A stretch of 54,013 nt of DNA from a virus (IMGVR_UViG_2778261162_000003); one strand, 5' to 3'. Positions 3,746 to 46,089 are shown, numbered from the stretch's first letter. Numbers and translations are program-made. The notes: generated from the sequence alone by a model not told the origin.

Positions 3746-4435
3746 CTACCCATGCTTCCTATATGTCTGCGGCATGCTCCCAATAACCTTACCGAAGATG
3801 AACACCCGGTTCATCTCGTCTTTCTCGATCGGGTCCCACGGTGAGTAGCTTTTGTTATCAGAGATGACCAGCAGCTTATCCTTCATCATTTGCAGGCGCT
3901 TTACATGGGCTGTGTCGTCGTACAGAAACGCATAGATACCATCACCGTCGAAAGATTTAACTGTGATATCAACGAACAGCAGATCACCTGGTTCGATCGT
4001 TCCTGACATGCTGTCACCACGCACGTTAATGATGCGGATATTTTCCGCCTTCCTACCATCGAACATATGACGAGCATCGTCAAACGAGTACTCAACCGAG
4101 CGTAGAACTTCTACAAACTCACGGTTGATGACTCCCGGCCCAGCACTGACTTCTATATCAAGAACGTCAATCTTGAAGTATTTGGAATGGCTGACAGTTG
4201 ATTGTATTGGTTGCACTGTACTGTCTGACATATTTCCAACGCCAGAAGATAACCATTCTGCGCGCACACCCAAAGCGTTCGCGATCTCCACGATTTTAGT
4301 TGTTTGATTAGCTTTCCCTGTTTCGATTTTCTGAATAGCAGCTTGGCTAACCCCGACCAAATCCCCAAGCGCCTTTTGTGTAAGGCCTCGCGCTAATCTG
4401 GCTTCTTTAAGTCTTTCTGAGAGTGTTGTTTTCAT
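3746..4435 (-). CDS. cI: Prophage repressor CI (N-terminal HTH plus C-terminal LexA/S24-type self-cleavage domain)
   Basis: HTH LTQKALGDLVGVSQAAIQKIETGK; C-terminal domain with catalytic Ser (RGDSMSGT) and Lys (HVKRL); start taken at MKTTLSERL since the upstream ATG lies inside the operator region; no Shine-Dalgarno, consistent with a leaderless pRM transcript. Confidence 0.85.
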   Translation of the reverse strand: MKTTLSERLKEARLARGLTQKALGDLVGVSQAAIQKIETGKANQTTKIVEIANALGVRAEWLSSGVGNMSDSTVQPIQSTVSHSKYFKIDVLDIEVSAGPGVINREFVEVLRSVEYSFDDARHMFDGRKAENIRIINVRGDSMSGTIEPGDLLFVDITVKSFDGDGIYAFLYDDTAHVKRLQMMKDKLLVISDNKSYSPWDPIEKDEMNRVFIFGKVIGSMPQTYRKHG

Positions 4436-4539: not shown

Positions 4540-4770
4540 ATGAACCCAGCTATCAAAACAGCGATCAATATCGTTGGTTCACAAAAGAAACTGGGCGCTG
4601 CTTGCGAAGTTTCACAGCAGGCCGTCTATAAGTGGCTTCACAACAAAGCAAAGGTATCCCCTGAACATGTCGGCAGCATTGTTACGGCTACTGGTGGAGT
4701 AGTGAAGGCATACCAGATTCGCCCGGATCTTCCGAAGTTGTTTCCACACACCGAAAAGAACGCAGCTTAA
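4540..4770 (+). CDS. cro: Cro-like HTH regulator
   Basis: 76 aa, divergent from cI across an operator region; HTH QKKLGAACEVSQQAVYKW. Confidence 0.7.
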   Translation: MNPAIKTAINIVGSQKKLGAACEVSQQAVYKWLHNKAKVSPEHVGSIVTATGGVVKAYQIRPDLPKLFPHTEKNAA

Positions 4771-8048: not shown

Positions 8049-9575
8049 ATGAAAAAAGCCATAGCATATATGCGATTTTCATCACCAGGTCAGATGTCTG
8101 GCGACTCATTAAACCGACAGAGAAGACTTATTGCTGAATGGTTAAAGGTAAATAGTGATTATTATCTTGATACCATAACATATGAAGATTTAGGATTAAG
8201 TGCATTCAAAGGAAAGCATGCACAATCAGGAGCTTTTTCGGAATTTTTAGATGCTATAGAGCATGGTTATATATTGCCAGGAACTACATTGTTAGTTGAA
8301 AGTCTGGACAGACTTTCAAGAGAAAAAGTCGGTGAAGCGATTGAGCGTCTGAAATTGATTTTGAATCACGGTATTGATGTTATAACTCTTTGCGATAATA
8401 CAGTCTATAATATTGACTCTTTGAATGATCCATATTCATTAATAAAAGCCATACTTATAGCACAAAGGGCAAATGAAGAAAGCGAGATAAAGTCAAGTCG
8501 GGTTAAATTATCATGGAAGAAAAAACGGCAGGATGCACTGGAGTCAGGCACGATTATGACGGCGTCTTGTCCGAGATGGCTCTCCTTAGATGACAAAAGA
8601 ACGGCTTTTGTTCCAGACCCCGACAGGGTGAAAACTATTGAGCTAATTTTTAAACTCAGGATGGAAAGGCGCTCATTGAATGCAATAGCCAAGTATTTAA
8701 ATGATCATGCTGTAAAGAATTTCTCAGGAAAAGAAAGTGCATGGGGACCTTCTGTAATTGAAAAATTATTAGCGAATAAAGCTCTGATAGGTATATGCGT
8801 ACCTTCATATCGTGCAAGAGGTAAAGGAATAAGTGAAATCGCTGGCTATTATCCCAGAGTCATATCAGATGATTTGTTTTACGCTGTGCAGGAAATTCGG
8901 TTGGCACCTTTTGGTATTAGCAATAGTAGCAAAAACCCTATGTTGATAAATCTACTTCGAACAGTTATGAAGTGCGAGGCTTGTGGTAATACCATGATTG
9001 TTCATGCGGTATCTGGAAGTTTGCATGGCTATTATGTTTGTCCGATGAGAAGACTGCATCGATGTGACAGGCCATCAATAAAGAGAGATTTGGTTGATTA
9101 TAATATCATTAATGAGTTGCTTTTTAATTGTAGTAAAATCCAACCAGTTGAAAACAAGAAAGATGCTAATGAAACTTTAGAGTTGAAAATTATTGAGCTC
9201 CAGATGAAAATTAATAATTTAATTGCTGCATTATCTGTTGCGCCTGAAGTTACCGCTATAGCAGAAAAAATCAGAGTATTAGATAAGGAATTACGAAGGG
9301 CTTCTGTATCATTAAAAACTTTGAAGAGTAAAGCGGTGAGCTCACTTGGTGATTTTCATGCTATTGACTTAACCAGTAAAAATGGGCGAGAGCTATGTCG
9401 TACACTTGCCTATAAAACATTCGAAAAAATCATAATCAATACAGATAATAAAACCTGTGATATCTATTTTATGAATGGCATTGTTTTTAAACACTATCCT
9501 TTAATGAAAACAATATCCGCCCAGCAGGCGATAAGTACTCTCAAATATATGGTTGATGGTGAGGTTTATTTTTGA
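8049..9575 (+). CDS. ybcK: Large serine recombinase (YbcK-like)
   Basis: 508 aa; N-terminal resolvase-like catalytic domain (AYMRFSSPGQ, active-site Ser); Cys-rich recombinase zinc-ribbon; AT-rich codon usage. Confidence 0.85.
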   Translation: MKKAIAYMRFSSPGQMSGDSLNRQRRLIAEWLKVNSDYYLDTITYEDLGLSAFKGKHAQSGAFSEFLDAIEHGYILPGTTLLVESLDRLSREKVGEAIERLKLILNHGIDVITLCDNTVYNIDSLNDPYSLIKAILIAQRANEESEIKSSRVKLSWKKKRQDALESGTIMTASCPRWLSLDDKRTAFVPDPDRVKTIELIFKLRMERRSLNAIAKYLNDHAVKNFSGKESAWGPSVIEKLLANKALIGICVPSYRARGKGISEIAGYYPRVISDDLFYAVQEIRLAPFGISNSSKNPMLINLLRTVMKCEACGNTMIVHAVSGSLHGYYVCPMRRLHRCDRPSIKRDLVDYNIINELLFNCSKIQPVENKKDANETLELKIIELQMKINNLIAALSVAPEVTAIAEKIRVLDKELRRASVSLKTLKSKAVSSLGDFHAIDLTSKNGRELCRTLAYKTFEKIIINTDNKTCDIYFMNGIVFKHYPLMKTISAQQAISTLKYMVDGEVYF

Positions 9576-35800: not shown

Positions 35801-36330
35801 CCGCTAAAAATGCAGATATCAGTGGCAGTGTGAATGCGAACTCCGGGACGCTCAACAACGTTACGATAAATGAGAACTGTCAGATTAAAGGGAAACTGTC
35901 AGCCAACCAGATTGAAGGCGATATTGTCAAAACAGTGGGTAAGGCTTTCCCGCGGGACTCCCGGGCACCGGAGCGGTGGCCATCAGGGACCATTACCGTC
36001 AGGATTTATGACGATCAGCCTTTTGACAGGCAAATTGTTATTCCGGCGGTGGCATTCTGCGGCGCTAAACATGAGCGGGAGAATAACGATATTTATTCGT
36101 CATGCCGCCTGATAGTGAAGAAAAATGGTGCTGAAATTTATAACCGTACCGCGCTGGATAATACGCTGATTTACAGTGGTGTTATTGATATGCCAGCTGG
36201 TCACGGCCACATGACGCTGGAGTTTTCGGTGTCAGCATGGCTGGTAAATGACTGGTATCCCACAGCAAGTATCAGCGATTTGCTGGTTGTGGTGATGAAG
36301 AAAGCCACCGCAGGCATCAGTATCAGCTGA
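32852..36330 (+). pseudogene. J: Tail tip host-specificity protein J, interrupted by a -1 frameshift in a G-run (or sequencing error); C-terminal receptor-binding region appears divergent from lambda J
   Basis: ORF 32852-34204 matches lambda J residues 1 to about 445; frame changes at GGGG (34173-34176) where recalled lambda has GGGGG; downstream frame continues as [24 protein letters not shown]... matching lambda J to 36330. Confidence 0.85.
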
Positions 36331-36349
36331 ATTTTATAACCCATATACG

Positions 36350-36375
36350 GGCGCCAGAAATGGCGCCTTTTTTAT
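36350..36375 (+). terminator. Rho-independent terminator downstream of J
   Basis: Hairpin GGCGCC-AGAAAT-GGCGCC followed by TTTTTT. Confidence 0.7.
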
Positions 36376-36397
36376 TGCAGAAAAGCGAGAGGTAATT

Positions 36398-36997
36398 ATG
36401 CGTAAAGTTTGTGCAGCCATTTTGTCCGCAGCCATCTGTCTGGCCGTATCCGGTGCGCCTGCATGGGCGTCTGAGCAGCAGGCCACACTGAGCGCAGGGT
36501 ATCTTCATGCCCGTACGAACGCTCCCGGCAGCGATAATCTGAACGGGATTAACGTGAAATACCGTTATGAGTTTACGGACACGCTGGGGCTGATTACGTC
36601 ATTCAGTTATGCCAACGCTGAAGATGAGCAAAAAACGCATTACAGCGATACCCGCTGGCATGAAGATTCCGTGCGTAACCGCTGGTTCAGCGTGATGGCG
36701 GGGCCGTCTGTGCGCGTGAATGAATGGTTCAGCGCGTATGCGATGGCGGGTGTGGCTTACAGCCGTGTGTCGACTTTCTCCGGGGATTATCTGCAGGTGA
36801 CCGACAATACGGGGAAAACGCACGATGTGCTGATCGGAAGTGATGACGGTCGCCACAGCAACACGTCTCTGGCGTGGGGGGCTGGCGTGCAGTTTAACCC
36901 GACCGAATCCGTGGCCGTTGATGTCGCTTATGAAGGTTCCGGCAGTGGCGACTGGCGCACTGACGGTTTCATCGTGGGTGTCGGTTATAAATTCTGA
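36398..36997 (+). CDS. lom: Outer membrane protein Lom (Ail/Lom family)
   Basis: 199 aa with signal peptide; C-terminal ...[10 protein letters not shown] beta-barrel signature; matches lambda Lom. Confidence 0.9.
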
Positions 36998-37024
36998 TTA
37001 GCCAGGTAACACAGTGTTATGACA

Positions 37025-37050
37025 GCCCGCCGGTTCAGGCGGGCTTTTTT
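37025..37050 (+). terminator. Rho-independent terminator downstream of lom
   Basis: Hairpin GCCCGCC-GGTTCA-GGCGGGC followed by TTTTTT. Confidence 0.7.
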
Positions 37051-37061
37051 GTGGGGTGAAT

Positions 37062-39890
37062 ATGGCAGTAAAGATTTCAGGTGTACTGAAAGACGGCACA
37101 GGAAAACCGGTACAGAACTGCACAATCCAGCTGAAAGCAAAACGTAACAGTACCACGGTGGTGGTGAACACGCTGGCCTCAGAAAATCCGGATGAAGCCG
37201 GGCGTTACAGCATGGACGTTGAGTACGGTCAGTACAGCGTTATTCTGTTGGTGGAAGGATTCCCGCCGTCACATGCCGGGACCATCACCGTGTATGAAGA
37301 TTCCCGACCCGGTACGCTGAATGATTTTCTCGGTGCCATGACGGAGGATGATGCCCGTCCTGAGGCACTGCGCCGTTTTGAACTGATGGTGGAAGAGGTG
37401 GCGCGTAACGCGTCCGCGGTGGCACAGAACACGGCAGCCGCGAAGAAGTCAGCCAGCGATGCCAGCACATCAGCCCGTGAGGCGGCAACCCATGCGACTG
37501 ATGCTGCAGGCTCAGCACGCGCAGCCAGCACGTCAGCCGGACAGGCTGCTTCGTCGGCTCAGTCAGCGTCTTCCAGCGCAGGAACGGCATCAACAAAGGC
37601 CACTGAAGCATTAAAAAGTGCTGCCGCTGCAGAGTCCTCAAAAAGCGCGGCGGCTACCAGTGCCGGTGCGGCGAAAACGTCAGAAACGAATGCGGCAGCG
37701 TCACAACAATCAGCAGCCACTTCTGCATCCGCCGCGACCACGAAGGCGTCAGAAGCAGCCACCTCAGCCCGGGATGCGGCGGCCTCAAAAGAGGCAGCGA
37801 AATCATCAGAAACGAACGCATCATCAAGCGCCAGTAGTGCCGCTTCCTCGGCAACGGCGGCAGGCAATTCCGCGAAGGCGGCAAAGACGTCTGAGACAAA
37901 CGCCAGGTCTTCTGAAACGGCAGCGGGACAGAGCGCCTCGGCTGCGGCAGGCTCAAAAACAGCGGCTGCGTCGTCTGCCAGTGCCGCGTCAACAAGTGCC
38001 GGGCAGGCCTCAGCCAGTGCCACCGCCGCCGGAAAATCGGCAGAAAGCGCCGCATCATCCGCTTCAACAGCCACAACGAAGGCTGGCGAAGCCACTGAAC
38101 AGGCCAGCGCAGCAGCGAGGTCTGCTTCCGCAGCGAAGACATCCGAAACGAACGCGAAAGCGTCGGAAACCAGCGCAGAATCCTCAAAAACGGCTGCCGC
38201 ATCGTCCGCCAGTTCGGCGGCGTCATCGGCATCATCTGCGTCTGCTTCAAAAGATGAGGCGACCAGACAGGCGTCAGCAGCGAGGGGCAGCGCCACGACG
38301 GCATCCACGAAGGCGACAGAGGCTGCTGGCAGTGCGGCAGCGGCAGCACAGAGCAAAAGTACGGCGGAATCCGCGGCAACGCGCGCCGAGACAGCAGCAA
38401 AACGGGCAGAGGATATTGCATCCGCCGTGGCGCTTGAGGATGCGAGCACGACGAAAAAGGGGATAGTACAGCTCAGCAGTGCGACTAACAGCACTTCCGA
38501 GTCACAGGCGGCAACGCCAAAAGCCGTTAAGGCCGCGTATGACCTGGCTAACGGGAAATACACCGCACAGGACGCTACGACAGCACAAAAAGGAATTGTC
38601 CAGCTCAGTAGTGCAACCAACAGCACATCTGAAACGCTTGCTGCGACACCGAAAGCAGTGAAAGCAGCTAATGACAATGCGAATGGTCGGGTACCTTCTG
38701 CCCGTAAGGTGAATGGTAAGGCGCTTTCAGCGGATATAACACTGACGCCGAAAGATATTGGTACGCTTAACTCAACAACAATGTCATTCAGCGGTGGTGC
38801 TGGTTGGTTCAAATTAGCAACGGTAACCATGCCACAGGCGAGTTCTGTTGTTTCAATTACGTTGATTGGTGGCGCTGGATTTAACGTGGGGTCACCTCAA
38901 CAGGCAGGTATATCTGAACTTGTTTTACGTGCAGGTAATGGTAATCCGAAGGGGATTACTGGTGCTTTATGGCAGCGCACATCGACAGGGTTTACAAATT
39001 TTGCCTGGGTCAATACATCTGGTGATACTTACGATATTTACGTTGCAATCGGAAATTATGCGACTGGTGTAAATATTCAATGGGATTATACCAGTAATGC
39101 CAGCGTGACGATTCATACGTCACCAGCATATTCTGCTAATAAGCCGGAAGGGTTAACGGACGGTACAGTTTATTCACTCTATACGCCATCAGAGCAGTTT
39201 TATCCGCCTGGCGCACCAATCCCGTGGCCATCAGATACCGTTCCGTCTGGCTATGCCCTGATGCAGGGGCAGACTTTTGACAAATCTGCATACCCGAAAC
39301 TTGCAGCCGCTTATCCGTCAGGCGTGATCCCTGATATGCGTGGCTGGACGATTAAGGGCAAACCTGCCAGTGGTCGGGCCGTATTGTCTCAGGAACAGGA
39401 CGGCATTAAATCGCATACCCACAGCGCCAGCGCATCCAGTACGGATTTGGGGACGAAAACCACATCGTCGTTTGATTACGGCACTAAATCCACGAATAAC
39501 ACTGGTGCGCATACCCATAGTTTAAGTGGCAGCACGAATGCAGCTGGTAATCACAGCCATAGAGATGGCCGTCGATTTAACCCCAGTGTTTTTAAAGATA
39601 CTTATCAATATGGTTATACAAGCTCAGGTCAAAATACCTGGGGTGTACAAGGCTCAGTAGGTATGTCTACGGGGTGGTTAGCGAATACCAGTACAGATGG
39701 TAATCATAGCCATTCACTGTCCGGCACAGCAGCATCTGCAGGTGCACACGCGCATACTGTCGGTATTGGTGCTCATACGCACTCCGTTGCGATTGGTTCA
39801 CATGGACACACCATCACCGTTAACGCTGCTGGTAACGCGGAAAACACCGTCAAAAACATCGCATTTAACTATATTGTGAGGCTTGCATAA
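37062..39890 (+). CDS. stf: Side tail fiber protein Stf (full length)
   Basis: N-terminal 110 aa match lambda Stf ([27 protein letters not shown]...); long Ala/Ser/Thr-rich repeat region; C-terminal domain with repeated His-x-His motifs ([42 protein letters not shown]). Confidence 0.9.
37400..38470 (+). repeat. Low-complexity Ala/Ser/Thr-rich coding repeat inside stf
   Basis: Iterated SAxSAxxAAT/KTSETNA units at protein level; GC-rich repetitive DNA producing long spurious ORFs on other frames and the opposite strand. Confidence 0.8.
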
Positions 39891-40465
39891 TGGCATTCAG
39901 AATGAGTGAACAACCACGGACCATAAAAATTTATAATCTGCTGGCCGGAACTAATGAATTTATTGGTGAAGGTGACGCATATATTCCGCCTCATACAGGT
40001 CTGCCAGCAAACAGTACCGATATTGCACCACCAGATATTCCTGCTGGCTTTGTGGCTGTTTTCAACAGTGATAAGGCATCGTGGCATCTTGTTGAAGACC
40101 ATCGGGGTAAAACGGTTTATGACGTAGCGTCAGGGGACGCGTTATTTATTTCTGAACTCGGTCCGTTACCGGAAAATGTTACCTGGTTATCGCCGGAAGG
40201 GGAGTTTCAGAAGTGGAACGGCACAGCCTGGGTGAAAGATGCAGAAGCAGAAAAACTGTTCCGGATCCGAGAGGCGGAAGAAACAAAAAACAGCCTGATG
40301 CAGGTAGCCAGTGAGCATATTGCGCCACTTCAGGATGCTGTAGATCTGGAAATCGCAACGGAGGAAGAAACCTCATTGCTGGAAGCCTGGAAAAAGTATC
40401 GGGTGTTGCTGAACCGTGTTGATACGTCAACTGCACAGGATATTGAATGGCCAGCACTGCCGTAG
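39890..40465 (+). CDS. tfa: Tail fiber assembly protein Tfa
   Basis: 191 aa; start overlaps the stf stop (TAATG); matches lambda Tfa family. Confidence 0.9.
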
Positions 40466-40562
40466 GGTAAAACATATAAATTCTATAATTAGATGTATCT
40501 TTCCATTTACGGCAAGGAAGGGGGCTTGGAAGACGTAAAGCATCTCACACCGAGATTATTTT

Positions 40563-41153
40563 TTATATGTCAGGTGTCTGAAGTTTTGCTTTGGCTCTTA
40601 AAATGGTTTGCCGCGAGGTTTTGAATTCCCGGGCAATGGCACTTATACTTACACCTGACTTAATTCGTTCGAATACCACCTGTTTCTGTTCTTCATTTAA
40701 CACAGGTGGTCGACCAAAACGTTTCCCTGCGCCGCGGGCTCTTACTATCCCGGAATGAGTGCGTTCAAGTAAAAGGTCTCGTTCAAATTCAGCGACTGCT
40801 GAAATTACGTGCATCATCATTTTTCCTGTTGGACTGGTCAGGTCAATGCCCCCCAATGCTAAGCAATGCACTCTGATACCTGTTTCGGTCAGTTGTTCCA
40901 CTGTTTTCCTGATATCCATTGCATTACAACCAAGGCGATCCAGTTTTGTCACAATCAATTGATCACCACATTTCAGGCGAGCAAGCAACCGGTTAAAACC
41001 AGGACGCTCACTGGTTGCTGCTGAGCCGCTAATGTGTTCTTCGATTATTTGCTGAGGTTTGATTTTAAAACCTGCACTTTCGATTTCCCGGCGTTGATTT
41101 TCGATGGTCTGATCCAGCGTTGATATCCGACAGTAAGCAAAAATTCGAGACAT
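40563..41153 (-). CDS. pin: Pin/Gin/Hin/Cin-family serine DNA invertase
   Basis: 196 aa; N-terminal [15 protein letters not shown] with active-site Ser; C-terminal HTH; immediately follows tfa in convergent orientation. Confidence 0.9.
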
Positions 41154-41469
41154 AGTGAGACTCTATACGAAATTGGTGTTCATATCATAATGCATCTCAG
41201 AAAATAATTTTGATTATTTTTGTGCATATTTGTATGTACACGTTCGAAAATAAACGAATGCGTATGCAACCCCGTAATTTTGGTGAGACCCAAAATCGAT
41301 TTTGTGAAAAATGGCTTTAACTCGGTTTGTTTTTCGAGTTCCGGGCGGACTCAAGGAAGAAGAATAGTGTTGCGTGTTATTTTAACCAGATTTCAAGTTG
41401 TTTGATCGTGGAAAAGTGGAGCAAAATGTTGTTAAAGTGGAAAAATGATAAAAAAGTAAGTTTATTATA

Positions 41470-41736
41470 TTACATTTTACCATTTAAATTTTGGTTGTCT
41501 TTAAGAACTGATATCGCTGTTTGTAATAATTCTTTGTTATCCAGCCATGATTTTTTCTTTATGTTTCCTTCAATGTAATCAAGCAATGTTCTGGTATTGA
41601 TAGGTCTTCCCTGTTTTGCTACTTCCACTACAGCATCCCCTAGGATAATTCTTACTTCAGGAAGCTGCGCAGGGAACCACTTTAGGGTGTCTTTTGATTT
41701 CATGAAGATATTCCTTAAAATATTATTGATTTTCAT
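41470..41736 (-). CDS. Hypothetical protein
   Basis: 88-aa ORF in AT-rich cargo region; no recognised similarity. Confidence 0.35.
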   Translation of the reverse strand: MKINNILRNIFMKSKDTLKWFPAQLPEVRIILGDAVVEVAKQGRPINTRTLLDYIEGNIKKKSWLDNKELLQTAISVLKDNQNLNGKM

Positions 41737-42204
41737 TGCGATATTGTATGTCTGATTCAGGATATGTTGACTTATACATCGGTTTTGTCTGGGTTATTGG
41801 ATATGCCAATCCCTAATTTTATTAGGGCATGACTAAAAATGCTGAATATGATAAGGAGAGAAGTGATTATCAGTATGCTGTTCATATAGCCTCGAATTAG
41901 TAATGTGTTATATATGATATAGTTGACAATTTTTATCCTGGGTGTTCTTAAAGTTCGTAGATAAACATTGTCGTTTCAGGTATACAGGAATGCTAACAGG
42001 TGGCGGCAAAAATCAGGCGGTTTATGGCGCAAGCTGAAGTGGCAACTGCAAACTATCTTATGCAGAGACTCTACACGGATTGGGTTTAAAAGTATACATA
42101 GATAACAGTTTTTATCTGAAGAAGAAAAATATCAAGGTGATATAGCCTATATGCCTATGATGCGGAGGAATGAATGTGATGGGAGTGATGTATCTGAATA
42201 GTTG

Positions 42205-42243
42205 AAAAACCGCAGACACGCCTTATGCAAGAACGTGCTGCGG
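42205..42243 (-). terminator. Putative rho-independent terminator of the methyltransferase gene
   Basis: Inverted repeat CCGCAGACACG...CGTGCTGCGG followed on the minus strand by a U-run, directly downstream of the stop at 42251. Confidence 0.5.
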
Positions 42244-42250
42244 TTGGATG

Positions 42251-42919
42251 CTATTTTTTCCCTGAAGCGGAAAACATTACTACAGTACCTTGAACCTTGG
42301 TTTTAACATTCTCGAAATGCTCTGAGAGTATATGTGTTAAGCCTTCTTCGGAATCTTTTGTGTTTGAAAAGATGCCTTTCTGATTGTAAATGCGCATCAG
42401 TTTTTGACCGAAGCTATTGTGCACAACTCCATCGCCAAGAATTGTGGCTCCGTATAGAGTTCCATCGTCAGTTAAGGCCTGCGCCGCATTGCGTATTACA
42501 CAGCTTTTTGTAGATATATTTCCAGGCAGGCAGTGAAGAAGGTAAAACATGGAAATGGAATCAAATTGACCATGTAACGCCGCGGGATAAGGTTCAAAAA
42601 CATCATGGTTAATTTTATGTTTAATTTTTGATTCCCCAGCCCTTGTAGATGCCGCGTTCAGGCTAGCTTCGTTCAAATCCATTAAAGATATCAGACTACT
42701 CTCAGGTACGTGAGTAAGGTAAAACCCAGTTCCAACACCAATATCCAGATGGTTGTTACCTAAATGTTCCAGAAAGTGTGGAAGAAGGTGTTCCTTTGTA
42801 GGACATCCCCATGCAAGCCGATTTGATACTCCCAAAACCCACCAGTCATAAAGCTTTAGGGTAAGTGGTGTGTAAATTTTAGCCCCATCATCTGTGTTTT
42901 TTTTCATTAATTTCACCAT
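42251..42919 (-). CDS. ybcY: Class I SAM-dependent methyltransferase (YbcY-like), apparently intact
   Basis: 222 aa; SAM-binding motif LDIGVGTGF; AT-rich; position corresponds to K-12 ybcY. Confidence 0.7.
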   Translation of the reverse strand: MVKLMKKNTDDGAKIYTPLTLKLYDWWVLGVSNRLAWGCPTKEHLLPHFLEHLGNNHLDIGVGTGFYLTHVPESSLISLMDLNEASLNAASTRAGESKIKHKINHDVFEPYPAALHGQFDSISMFYLLHCLPGNISTKSCVIRNAAQALTDDGTLYGATILGDGVVHNSFGQKLMRIYNQKGIFSNTKDSEEGLTHILSEHFENVKTKVQGTVVMFSASGKK

Positions 42920-42975
42920 GTTATAGTTTTATTTGTGAATTAAATCAATTATGGCGATGAATTACAAGGGGTTAA

Positions 42976-43281
42976 ATGCTGCCGCAGCATAGCGATATTG
43001 AAATAGCCTGGTATGCTTCGATACAGCAGGAGCCGAATGGCTGGAAGACCGTCACCACACAGTTCTACATCCAGGAATTCAGTGAGTATATTGCGCCACT
43101 GCAGGATGCTGTAGATCTGGAAATCGCAACGGAGGAAGAAAGATCGTTGCTGGAGGCATGGAATAAATATCGGGTATTGTTGAATCGAGTTGATACATCA
43201 GTAGCTCTGGGTATGAAGCTGTTTGTAACTCATGTTACAGTAACAGTCATTACTATCTCGAAGGTGCAAAATGTATATTGA
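42976..43281 (+). pseudogene. Tail fiber assembly gene fragment (tfaX-like 3' remnant)
   Basis: ORF contains [37 protein letters not shown], near-identical to the Tfa C-terminus; about 120 nt of DNA similarity to 40318-40440; no Tfa N-terminal part. Confidence 0.75.
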
Positions 43282-43464
43282 TTTGATATTTTATAAATTT
43301 ACTTCGAATCTGGCACGTCAACTTTTGATTAAAGTAATATCAGTTTTCGGCGAAAAAAGGACCGTGTACATGAGACGATTTCATACAATAATAACAAAAA
43401 TATGAATATGCTCCCAATGCAATATATGTTTTGCATTGGGAGCAAATAGCGGAATATTTTGAAA

Positions 43465-44949
43465 TTATTGTATTTCTGCTTCAGAATTTCCTGGGCAGTA
43501 TATATTTTCTATTTTTTGTGGAGTGATCAGGTAATGTACAACTGCTTTATCTACACATAAATTAACTCCGGTGAGAGCTAATGTATGCCCATCACCATTT
43601 ATTGTTAGTAACGGGCTGGAAAATTTCTCTGCCATCTTACGGGCATTAATCCAGGGCGTTGTTGGGTCGTATTTGTGTGCTACAAACAGTAAACCAGAGG
43701 GCAGAACAGTATTTTTCAGGCGAGTTTTGTTCAGGTCGCTATGTATTGGCCATAATTCACAAAAATCAGGTGAATCGGAACGTCCATTGTCAAAGTTAAT
43801 AGCCGGGAAGGCATTCGCAAGAGCGTCTTTTCGGGATTTTCGCTCTTCTGGTGTTAATTGCTCATCCCCCTGATCTACACAGAGGATTACCCCCGAAGCA
43901 TCGCTTGACTCTTCTGAGGCTATCGGAGCACTGAGCGCAGTTTCAATTTCATTACTGACAATCCCCTGAGAGAACTGGCGTATGGCAGTTGCAAGGGTTG
44001 GCCATGATGAACGCCATAGCAGAAGGTCTGTTGTTAATGATATGAGTTCATCTGAAGATATATTTTCTCCCTTACTGTCTAATAAAGGTTTGTGATGTAA
44101 TTTTGATAATAGCTCATGGAACTGAGTTATTGCCTTATCTCTGTCTGAAGAAAGCGGGCAACTTTTTGTACGCGCACACCAGGATGCAAAGCGATCAAAC
44201 GTTTCCTGATAACTCTGTGCCTGTTTGAGTTGCCATGTGAAGTTGTCCTCCAGGTCATCGATATCGACGACTCCATCAAGAACGATAGATCTTACGTTGT
44301 AGGGAAAACGTTCTGCATATAAGGCTGCAATTTGAGTTCCATACGAATACGCCACGGCTGTCAGTTGTTTATCCCCCAAGGCTTGCCTAATACGATCAAT
44401 ATCGTATACAGCCTCGTTAGAGCCGATATGGCGAATGACTTCGGCTCCGGTATTATGGATACAGGCATTAATTTTATTTAATACTTGTTGCTTTTCGGTT
44501 ATGTTTTCCTGAGTCTCTGTATCTGATTGCCGGCAGTTTATTGTCGGAGTGGACTGTCCGACGCCTCGAGGATCAAATCCAATAATATCCCATGACTCAC
44601 GAAGATTTGTGACTGGCCAGTCAAAGTTAATATAAGGATTTATGCCTGGTAACCCGGGACCACCACTTATTATCAGGATACTTCCTTTATGCTTGCTTTT
44701 TGCCGGCAATTTTGTCAACGCTAGTTTGACTTGTGATTTTTTTTCATAAGAAGCATCTCCGCCTGTGTCTGTATATTTTAATGGAACAGACAAATAACCA
44801 CATAGTAAGTCAGGAGACGGTTTTTCCTCACCAAACCAGTGGTTGAATTGACTGGCCATACAGGATTGCCACTGTATCTGCTGGGCAGATACGGTTACTG
44901 GTAGAAGTAACGTTAAAACAACTTTGAAATGAGTGATTATTTTTCGCAT
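43465..44949 (-). CDS. Secreted alpha/beta-hydrolase, S33 (TAP/tripeptidyl aminopeptidase-like) family
   Basis: 494 aa; signal peptide; oxyanion-hole-like ISGGPGLPG; nucleophile elbow AYSYGT (x-S-x-G); family assignment from motifs only. Confidence 0.6.
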   Translation of the reverse strand: MRKIITHFKVVLTLLLPVTVSAQQIQWQSCMASQFNHWFGEEKPSPDLLCGYLSVPLKYTDTGGDASYEKKSQVKLALTKLPAKSKHKGSILIISGGPGLPGINPYINFDWPVTNLRESWDIIGFDPRGVGQSTPTINCRQSDTETQENITEKQQVLNKINACIHNTGAEVIRHIGSNEAVYDIDRIRQALGDKQLTAVAYSYGTQIAALYAERFPYNVRSIVLDGVVDIDDLEDNFTWQLKQAQSYQETFDRFASWCARTKSCPLSSDRDKAITQFHELLSKLHHKPLLDSKGENISSDELISLTTDLLLWRSSWPTLATAIRQFSQGIVSNEIETALSAPIASEESSDASGVILCVDQGDEQLTPEERKSRKDALANAFPAINFDNGRSDSPDFCELWPIHSDLNKTRLKNTVLPSGLLFVAHKYDPTTPWINARKMAEKFSSPLLTINGDGHTLALTGVNLCVDKAVVHYLITPQKIENIYCPGNSEAEIQ

Positions 44950-45135
44950 TGTGTCTCTGAATATCGGAATAAAGATAAGATTTGAATATATTGAGGTCTT
45001 GTGTTGCGGTAAGAGATTACACGTTATGACATAGGTTAAATGCTTACAAAATTAGTGGATATTGCCTACTTGTAACTGTAAACAAATTCCCCGGGGTTAT
45101 ACAATACCACCGGGGAGAAAATCTGGTTAACTTCG

Positions 45136-46089
45136 TTAAAAGGTGTACTTAAGACCAGCAGTAGTGATGAAGTTATAGTTTTCTATGCCTGCACCATTTT
45201 TGCTGTAGTCTGAAGTGTTATCATTGTGATCATAAAGTGAAGTATTACCTTTTTTATTCGTAACCCGATTCCATGCGCCTTCAACATAAACTTTTGCGTT
45301 AGGTGTTACGTAATAACCTGCATTGACTGCAACAGAATAGTAATTTTGGTCTTTGACTTTACTGCGATAAGTGATTCTTTTTCCTGGGTCATAGTGCTCA
45401 TCGTTATCAGATGCTTCCACCCAGCCGCTGTATTTAAATGTGCCACCTAGCTCAAAATCTTCATAACGATAACTTCCAGTCAAGCCAATGTAGGGCATTT
45501 TAAAACGTTGTTTGTAGCCGATTGCTCTTTCTCCATTCGGGAAGGAGCCGATATCATCTCTGAATCCCTCCTCAGAACTGTAGATATAGGAACCACCTCT
45601 GGCTGTAAAGCTATAACGGCTTTCCTGATATCCGGCCATGAGTCCCAGGCGGTAATTGGGTTCGTTGAGGAGCCAGCCTTTGATATTCAGATCAAATTCG
45701 TTGGCATAATTGAGTTGTGTATCAGGGTGCCTACTTTCATCTGTCCAGGTTCCGGGGTTACTGGAATCCATCCAGTCCTGATCGACCATATTGCCACCTC
45801 GGCTGCCGAGAGTAGTCCAGCCCGCAGCCCCAATAGATATCTGGGGCATCAAATCCCAATTAATTGCACCTTTAATAATTGCAGCGTTATTGAATTTCCA
45901 GTCGAGTTGACTGACTTTTCGGCCTCCTTCTTCAGCTAGATAAACGCGCTCTTTTGTTTTTCCGCTCAGAGTTCCAAGACTAATGTCCGCATTTATGTTG
46001 TCAGGAGTAAACGATATAGTCTCGGTAGAAGCAAAAGAGCTGATCGCAATAGGGGTTGTCAGAACTATTCCCAGAAGTTTCGCCCGCAT
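45136..46089 (-). CDS. ompT: Outer membrane protease OmpT (omptin)
   Basis: 317 aa, matches E. coli OmpT (MRAKLLGIVLTTPIAISSFA...TAGLKYTF). Confidence 0.95.
   Translation of the reverse strand: MRAKLLGIVLTTPIAISSFASTETISFTPDNINADISLGTLSGKTKERVYLAEEGGRKVSQLDWKFNNAAIIKGAINWDLMPQISIGAAGWTTLGSRGGNMVDQDWMDSSNPGTWTDESRHPDTQLNYANEFDLNIKGWLLNEPNYRLGLMAGYQESRYSFTARGGSYIYSSEEGFRDDIGSFPNGERAIGYKQRFKMPYIGLTGSYRYEDFELGGTFKYSGWVEASDNDEHYDPGKRITYRSKVKDQNYYSVAVNAGYYVTPNAKVYVEGAWNRVTNKKGNTSLYDHNDNTSDYSKNGAGIENYNFITTAGLKYTF

Follow-up and report, generated by a model that had tools for sequence, protein, structure and literature searches.

The window analyzed here is the whole 54,013-nucleotide (nt) sequence of the virus IMGVR_UViG_2778261162_000003, and the locus under study is the region that follows its tail-fibre gene stf, from position 39,891 to 43,464. 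The locus comprises a complete tail fibre assembly gene (tfa), a small serine recombinase gene of pin type, ydfK, ynaM, the methyltransferase gene ybcY and finally tfaX, which holds a second copy of the tfa 3' end (Table 1). The minus strand encodes all four genes lying between the two copies of the tfa 3' end (recombinase, ydfK, ynaM and ybcY). Around the locus, 3.7 kb are 100% identical in many complete Escherichia coli chromosomes. Of 5426 complete E. coli genomes, 311 contain the whole region (at least 80% covered); phages Turner, Kati and PhiR68_2 have it as well. In the RefSeq annotation of one such genome, the gene order is J-lom-stf-tfa-pin(pinR)-ydfK-ynaM(YnaM/YnfT)-ybcY (class I methyltransferase)-tfaX'-alpha/beta hydrolase-ompT-envY-ybcH-nfrA; 43069-43281 is annotated by RefSeq as a tail fibre assembly pseudogene without its N-terminus. 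That genome, of strain KSC207, carries a complete lambdoid prophage with intD behind an Arg tRNA gene, which we take to be argU, the integration site of DLP12; starting at the exo/bet region, the window is syntenic with this prophage. The locus is the right arm of a lambdoid prophage of the DLP12 site, a full-length relative of the cryptic prophage DLP12 of K-12. In all probability, the genes between the tail-fibre genes and the attachment site form an accessory stretch made of two independently acquired modules, and do not derive from an inversion switch.

Table 1. Features of the locus, with positions in the window (aa, amino acids; ORF, open reading frame; SAM, S-adenosylmethionine).
Feature	Position	Strand	Evidence
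tfa, complete tail fibre assembly gene, 191 aa	39890..40465	+	ORF; Pfam Caudo_TAP E = 3e-44; 96-97% to TfaR and TfaQ
Left direct-repeat copy (tfa 3' end)	40298..40443		Repeat search and self-BLAST
Putative Tn3-family transposon remnant: right terminal inverted repeat, tnpR and 57 nt upstream	40520..41210	-	83% DNA identity over 690 nt to L016 3942-4630
Degenerate transposon terminal inverted repeat, GGGG tip ~55 nt after the tfa stop	40520..40567		Alignment to the tip with L016/L017 and L018
Small serine recombinase, 196 aa, PinR/PinQ type, putative orphan TnpR with Cys76 at the Arg71 position	40563..41153	-	99% to PinR; Pfam Resolvase and HTH_7
ydfK/ynaE homologue, 77 aa	41470..41703	-	100% to K-12 YdfK; RefSeq start; frame open to 41736 (88 aa)
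ynaM/ynfT, small hydrophobic protein, 37 aa	41772..41885	-	100% to K-12 YnaM; RefSeq
Mobile ybcY-tfaX cassette: hairpin, methyltransferase, 56-nt gap, tfaX to the VDTS codons	42206..43205		96.2-96.8% identity over 995-996 nt elsewhere
Hairpin, then U run on the minus strand; predicted ybcY terminator and module joint	42210..42243	-	Fold and partner switching
ybcY, intact class I SAM-dependent methyltransferase, 222 aa	42251..42919	-	Pfam Methyltransf_12/23/25/11
tfaX ORF, 101 aa: 35 unique N-terminal codons, ~42 Tfa-derived, C-terminus replaced	42976..43281	+	ORF; Pfam
Right direct-repeat copy (Tfa-homologous part of tfaX)	43069..43214		Repeat search and self-BLAST

The repeat search detected the two copies of the tfa 3' end as a direct, gapless repeat of 146 nt with 84% identity. 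Self-BLAST of 36000-46000 on both strands delimited a core at 40309-40429 and 43080-43200 (121 nt, 88.4%, E = 5.6e-37). The two copies are offset by 2771 nt, and tblastn over the whole window matched Tfa residues 132-182 to 43054-43206 (78%, E = 9e-20). An earlier reading of the window, made from its sequence alone (the sequence-only reading), had reported about 120 nt of the tfa 3' end recurring in the same orientation; the repeat is real, with coordinates 2-4 nt away from those first noted. That reading had also described the genes between the copies as AT-rich, which agrees with a guanine-plus-cytosine (GC) content of 31-47% across 40400-43500 versus 50-64% in stf, and it had correctly placed an intact SAM methyltransferase gene, ybcY, among them. 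Its gene list was right about an 88-aa gene, which is ydfK (77 aa from the annotated start), and missed the 37-aa ynaM/ynfT gene.

Comparison of arrangements with and without the pin module showed that tfa is alike up to ~40425 and diverges within its last ~30 nt. Two tfa termini were distinguished: one precedes the pin module and the other, ending TAPDIEWPTNPVRE, precedes a hairpin. In Tritos and ev243 the upstream fibre cassette is unrelated, yet ~110 nt of the tfa 3' end, beginning at the counterpart of 40355, persist in both, directly 5' of the pin module or of the hairpin. Because this piece is retained beside an unrelated fibre cassette, the repeated tfa 3' segment is, as far as the comparison indicates, a recurrent recombination joint among phages, with tfaX as a further copy. 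Two Tfa variants with internal deletions were also observed. The deletion in one of them (P0097) ends at the start point of the tfaX homology (SEHIAPLQ), and that in the other (P0063) a few residues beyond (LQDAVDLE), which suggests a recurrent breakpoint or a domain boundary in Tfa.

The other joint is the hairpin itself, a 34-nt sequence (CCGCAGACACGCCTTATGCAAGAACGTGCTGCGG) located between ynaM and ybcY. As minus-strand RNA it has a folding energy of -22.3 kcal/mol (z = -3.47), and a U run comes next; on these grounds it is predicted to be the likely terminator of ybcY. Rac and Qin hardly differ from the window between the 5' end of ydfK (alignment start 41700) and the hairpin, ynaM included, and all three diverge beyond it, where Rac and Qin continue with attachment-site DNA and the window with ybcY. 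In K-12 DLP12, 14 nt separate the tfaD stop codon from the hairpin, and the hairpin and everything to its right are common to the window. Partners change exactly at the hairpin in Rac, Qin, Tritos, DLP12, O26, ev243, P2-like prophages and a prophage remnant (L015). The window hairpin is that of Tritos (pin-module type) up to GCGGTTGG and continues with DLP12-type sequence; therefore a crossover would have occurred in or just after the hairpin. Since both modules occur alone in other phages or prophages and meet at this shared hairpin, the genes between the tfa repeats are best taken, on these alignments, as two independent modules joined at the hairpin and not as a single unit bracketed by repeats. 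In the literature searched, no description was found of the hairpin and tfa 3' joints, nor did a search on ybcY, tfaX and tfaD return a description of this structure.

The first module, pin-ydfK-ynaM, extends over 40466-42209 and is present in 2736 of the 5426 genomes. It occurs without ybcY-tfaX in Rac, Qin, Tritos, mEp460 and HannyBb. The right ends of Rac (stfR-tfaR-pinR-ynaE-ynaM) and Qin (stfQ-tfaQ-pinQ-ydfK-ynfT) resemble the window in gene order and orientation: the same three genes follow tfa and the hairpin stands at the end. Their proteins are 99% (recombinase) and 100% (YdfK and YnaM) identical to those of the window; the difference lies after the hairpin, where the window has ybcY-tfaX-hydrolase-ompT in place of attachment-site DNA. 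Between the putative transposon relic and ydfK, 260 nt (41211-41469) gave no match among the sequences compared. Several short palindromes, e.g. TTTTGG-N6-CCAAAATCGATTTTG, were seen at 41154-41300, a segment that overlaps the first 90 nt of this stretch and folds better than shuffled sequences as single-stranded DNA (z = -2.95).

The second module is the ybcY-tfaX cassette. Its close copies reside in P2-like prophages next to smpB (L011-L014) and in a different, J-encoding prophage remnant (L015), where an Iso_dh fragment lies alongside; the sequence in common with the window starts at the hairpin and stops at the tfaX codons for VDTS (42206/42210 to 43200/43205 in the window). The methyltransferase gene and tfaX form a divergent pair there, behind a P2-like tail fibre and Tfa and behind a J-like protein and tail spike. 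In one of the P2-like prophages, a remnant (L011), the only tfa sequence ahead of the cassette is a 191-nt 3' fragment (4009-4199) directly after gpD, so that both flanking tfa pieces are partial; this probably reflects an internal deletion of that prophage. Without the pin module, ybcY-tfaX follows tfa in K-12 DLP12, in O26:H11 11368 (a full prophage at the same site) and in ev243. Moreover, tfa and tfaX' lie too close for a pin module between them in 378 genomes, with the order tfa-methyltransferase-tfaX'-hydrolase in every one among the matches listed. The insertion of cargo by recombination between tfa copies, put forward by the sequence-only reading, fits this half of the locus, a 1-kb unit conserved at 96% behind unrelated tail genes and always with a tfa 3' piece; it does not fit the whole cargo, which consists of two modules.

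The comparison with K-12 tfaD-ybcY-tfaX, which had been suggested beforehand, proved useful. DLP12 (tfaD-ybcY-tfaX-appY-ompT) has in common with the window the site ompT-envY-ybcH-nfrA, the hairpin-ybcY-tfaX unit and the left breakpoint of tfaX. Unlike the window, it lacks pin-ydfK-ynaM, has appY in place of the hydrolase gene and has most of its structural genes deleted. Its ybcY, an annotated pseudogene, is 2 nt short in a run of T (of A on the coding strand) a few codons after its start (window 42899-42910; L002 ~8800). K-12 tfaX retains the natural tfa 3' end and has an in-frame TGA; in the window, the last tfaX codons are replaced from ~43205, where the hydrolase-side sequence starts. The tfaX product matches positions 75-121 of the 131 of Pfam Caudo_TAP (E = 9e-18). 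Proteins that cover its unique 35-residue N-terminus are all short (82-108 aa), some of them being intact forms of 86-89 aa with a natural Tfa C-terminus. Synonymous divergence (dS) is only 0.02-0.035 in ybcY, which is almost invariant among cassette copies, versus 0.15-0.66 in the Tfa-derived part of tfaX, where the ratio of non-synonymous to synonymous divergence (dN/dS) is 0.14-0.65. High divergence of this part of tfaX beside an almost invariant ybcY is the expected product of repeated exchange with resident functional tfa genes. The cassette has the attributes of a moron, namely a terminator and a promoter of its own, both predicted, a deviant GC content (38-43% over the cassette) and presence or absence in Turner, Tritos, ev243, O26 and K-12. 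The promoter-like site, at 42975-42948 on the minus strand, is a weak match to the consensus.

The recombinase of the first module deserves separate consideration. Beyond its near identity to PinR, it is 83% identical to the TnpR of a transposon (P0135) and 38% identical to PinE over 183 residues. Gin, Cin, Hin and Pin share roughly 60-70% identity among themselves, and at 38% to PinE the window protein is not of the Pin family in the strict sense. The sequence-only reading had called it a Pin-family invertase; in the strict sense this family assignment falls. A database search returned numerous relatives, 76-85% identical, which many Enterobacterales carry on plasmids or in the chromosome. 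The P0135 gene is divergent from that of a 994-aa DDE_Tnp_Tn3 transposase across a 160-nt gap, which is the classic tnpA-res-tnpR layout, on E. coli plasmids. The plasmid transposon (NZ_CP012500.1 28566-32416; L016-L019) matches the window over 41210-40524, a stretch that starts 57 nt before the ATG, spans the gene and reaches into the right terminal repeat of the transposon. In L016, the terminal repeats measure 52-53 nt (822-874 and 4586-4638). Independent copies of the transposon (L016/L017 versus L018) diverge immediately outside the terminal repeats, and the window aligns up to the tip. Given the 83% match in both protein and DNA plus the retained terminal repeat, the recombinase would therefore have come beside tfa by transposition and not in a fibre switch. 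We read it as the leftover resolvase of a Tn3-family transposon.

Among the components of a Tn3-family element, TnpR was found, and a pair of terminal repeats, TnpA and res were not. The window contains no tnpA (no tblastn match to L016 TnpA at E <= 1), no second (left) terminal repeat and no further transposon DNA. No res site with a crossover subsite was detected in it either: homology to the transposon ends 57 nt upstream of the ATG, and the res half-site motif TGTCCGAAA occurs in the window at chance frequency (11 found versus 12.4 expected). A diverged member of the clade (84% identical, dS 0.22) shows an identical 97-nt spacing from tfa; the insertion would therefore be old. In the searchable literature, that is titles and abstracts with incomplete coverage, no paper on PinR/PinQ and Tn3 or tnpR pointed to a transposon origin, and neither Tn3 nor tnpR occurs in the text of PMC12529663. 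A Salmonella preprint mentioning "pinR" was set aside; the term appears there to be a mere annotation name of the invertase of the fljAB flagellar-phase locus, unrelated to the prophage module.

The catalytic residues of this putative relic were compared with those of known resolvases. In Tn3 resolvase, mutating Y6, R8, S10, D36, R68 or R71 abolishes recombination, with cleavage down ~1000-fold (PMC2794168). In an alignment with gamma-delta resolvase, Y6, R8, S10 and R68 correspond to Y7, R9, S11 and R73 of the window protein, while D36 is replaced by Glu39 and R71 by Cys76, so that the predicted set of six crucial residues is incomplete. The motif KLDRLGR is present in 112 of the best 120 relatives, whereas KLDRLGC is found in the prophage clade only (5 clusters); a single CGT-to-TGT change accounts for the Arg-to-Cys replacement. 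The gene is under some purifying selection and is not decaying freely: the prophage clade has a dN/dS of 0.39, based on 26 synonymous and 36 non-synonymous changes, and comparison with the transposon gene gives 0.15-0.19. The recognition-helix region, SRQTILRAK, is near that of the transposon (TRQTILRVR) and unlike that of PinE (GVSTLYKRF), and we infer that DNA specificity differs from that of PinE. There is no cognate site nearby; therefore the resolvase cannot rearrange the window locus.

These comparisons show the make-up of the locus, its homologies and the limits and distribution of the modules; from them we infer the following order of events, recombination route and present protein roles. 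In an ancestral phage, a Tn3-family transposon would have inserted ~55 nt 3' of tfa; its transposase, its res sites and the other inverted repeat would since have been lost, leaving one end, tnpR and 57 nt. The resolvase may have survived as a DNA-binding or trans-acting factor. The methyltransferase cassette, always accompanied by a tfa 3' piece, would have spread from phage to phage through general recombination that used tfa homology on its right side, and its installation would have left two direct repeats, one in a complete tfa and the other in a partial one. The arrangement seen in the window would then be a recombinant of Rac/Qin-type and DLP12-type right ends, with the crossover in the shared hairpin. 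The tfa repeats would thus be best read as footprints of recombination at tfa homology.

The sequence-only reading had also envisaged a decayed switch, the recombinase being what remains of an invertible segment of the Mu G, P1 C or e14 P type after loss of the inverted fibre end and crossover sites. Indeed, the recombinase directly follows stf-tfa, as do gin, cin and pinE, and its best match among solved structures is Gin, although the phmmer score (106 bits) is only a little above that of gamma-delta resolvase (84 bits). The Din switches (Mu G/Gin, P1 C/Cin, e14 P/PinE) likewise have a small serine recombinase adjoining stf/tfa-type genes, but they possess inverted crossover sites and alternative fibre ends, and the window has neither; moreover, the window recombinase gene is oriented towards tfa, and pinE away from the P segment. 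The self-comparison in both orientations that the earlier reading had called for, performed as the self-BLAST described above, found the direct repeat and no inverted stf/tfa segment, and tblastn of Tfa, Stf and the recombinase over the whole window revealed no inverted stf/tfa copy, the sole match being the direct tfaX copy, and no second pin-type recombinase. Scans of the window for crossover sites gave 0 matches to the 26-nt hix/gix/pix consensus with up to 3 mismatches. The best site scored 13 of the 18 specified positions, which is the usual maximum of shuffled sequences, compared with 17 of 18 (by hand) for the two real e14 pix sites. The crossover core motif was found 5 times versus 2.05 expected, none of them paired, and searches with the e14 half-site and 16-mer yielded nothing above chance. 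On both of these points, the missing inverted fibre alternative and the missing convincing gix/hix-like site, the earlier reading was correct, as it was in seeing no functional switch. A close recombinase, an inverted pair of 26-nt sites and inverted fibre ends, all found in Din switches, are lacking, and the similarity to Tn3-family tnpR in protein and DNA with the adjoining terminal repeat contradicts a switch origin, as does the position of tfaX, which is direct and belongs to a cassette occurring without any recombinase. The tfa-pin layout is, besides, kept in deposited complete phage genomes. A decayed switch is therefore scarcely credible. It is also very improbable that the tfa repeats are active substrates, homologous or site-specific, by which pin-ydfK-ynaM-ybcY loops out or is deleted. 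A direct repeat of 121 nt at 88% would be enough for occasional RecA- or Red-mediated deletion, but the predicted junction was present in 0 of the 5426 genomes (at least 80% of a 450-nt query, which covers the hydrolase-type right flank only), and pin-less arrangements have a different tfa terminus, their joint being the hairpin rather than the repeat. The 450-nt query cannot be joined from separate pieces; matches to a 980-nt junction query were joined pieces of the tfa-ybcY-tfaX arrangement and say nothing about deletion.

Several points weigh against an origin from two acquired modules with a resolvase relic. The terminator and promoter of ybcY are predictions; the order of acquisition and the recombination route come from comparison only, with no intermediate observed; given its intact 86-89-aa forms, tfaX may be a gene rather than a footprint; and PinQ, and by extension the 99%-identical PinR, was reported in 2025 to invert the e14 P segment in trans and to block phage T2 (PMC12529663). 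If PinQ catalyzes this inversion directly, it is a working invertase despite Cys76. The locus could then be one half of a split switch for phage defence, with a catalytically active PinR-type protein inverting P-like fibre segments elsewhere in the host. This is possible but doubtful. Over-production of PinQ raises e14 P inversion from ~30% to 88%, T2 protection needs both pix sites and e14 (PMC12529663), and the gene is intact in thousands of genomes with a dN/dS below 1. However, the protein has Cys at the Arg71 position and a recognition helix like that of the transposon resolvase, not PinE; the window has no pix site; deletion of pinE alone locks the P segment though pinQ and pinR are present (PMC12529663); and the K-12 P segment was found in 284 genomes versus 2736 for the pin module. 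We tentatively propose, without holding it to be probable, that the PinR/PinQ clade, present in about half of complete E. coli genomes, is a domesticated Tn3-family resolvase that has lost Arg71 and res, and that lambdoid prophages keep it not for inversion of its own but to regulate through DNA binding or to modulate true invertases, e.g. PinE. As for tfaX, a real small gene, encoding a mini tail-fibre chaperone of 86-89 aa in a divergent two-gene functional unit with the methyltransferase, appears rather unlikely. Intact ORFs with the natural Tfa C-terminus occur in several contexts, tfaX stays paired with ybcY in three phage backgrounds, and overall dN/dS is 0.20-0.60. Yet the ORF is broken in K-12 by the in-frame TGA, re-tailed in the window by the replaced C-terminus, and also altered in a common 82-aa form. 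The unique 35 codons differ by only 6-7 changes per sequence pair (dN/dS 0.43-0.55), too few to be informative, and the low C-terminal dN/dS is expected from repeated copying of functional tfa, the dS there far exceeding that of ybcY.

Other features were noted on both sides of the locus and further away. The stf gene (37056-39890) encodes 944 aa in the window; its product is longer in KSC207 and O26 (986 aa) and longer still in Rac and Turner (~1120 aa). The gene is rich in families of short Ala/Ser-rich direct repeats, which probably drive this length variation. Where K-12 DLP12 has appY, the window encodes a 494-aa alpha/beta hydrolase (TAP-like) on the minus strand (43465-44949), which along almost the whole of its length matches C3a206 "TAP-like protein", a candidate defence model of PADLOC (E = 6e-57). 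The hydrolase gene is predicted to terminate at 43406-43447, where an inverted repeat of 17 nt with an 8-nt loop (94% complementarity) precedes a T-rich minus-strand tail. The PADLOC scan gave no credible match for the recombinase, YdfK, YnaM or YbcY (the best was ybcY against mad2, E = 7e-4), and the NCBIfam scan gave sub-threshold matches only. A second recombinase, unrelated to the pin gene, is encoded by a 508-aa ORF on the plus strand (8049-9575), between the replication genes and ybcN/ninE/rusA; this ORF is syntenic with ybcK (large "recombinase family protein").

Phage morons and the modular mosaicism of lambdoid phages are well established (Hendrix and colleagues; Botstein's modular theory). 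The modules of the window resemble them in being AT-rich, in having a predicted promoter and terminator, in being present or absent among syntenic phages and in being exchanged at short shared sequences; nothing essential differs. The architecture is common, has already been sequenced many times and annotated, and is explained by ordinary phage mosaicism. What is new is a modest detail, namely the putative transposon origin and the Arg71-to-Cys change of the PinR/PinQ clade, which were not found in the searchable literature.

This detail bears on annotation and on a published mechanism. A "P-type DNA invertase" annotated beside tail-fibre genes invites the reading of a broken host-range switch, whereas the sequence points to a resolvase relic. 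If the PinR/PinQ clade is indeed a domesticated resolvase, the published defence mechanism in which PinQ inverts e14 would need to be re-read as an indirect effect; the Arg71-to-Cys change, the resolvase-type helix and the locking of the P segment by pinE deletion (PMC12529663) make the 2025 invertase mechanism of PinQ/PinR directly testable. Finally, the locus offers a clean example of cassette swapping among lambdoid and P2-like phages at two short joints, the tfa 3' end and the terminator hairpin.

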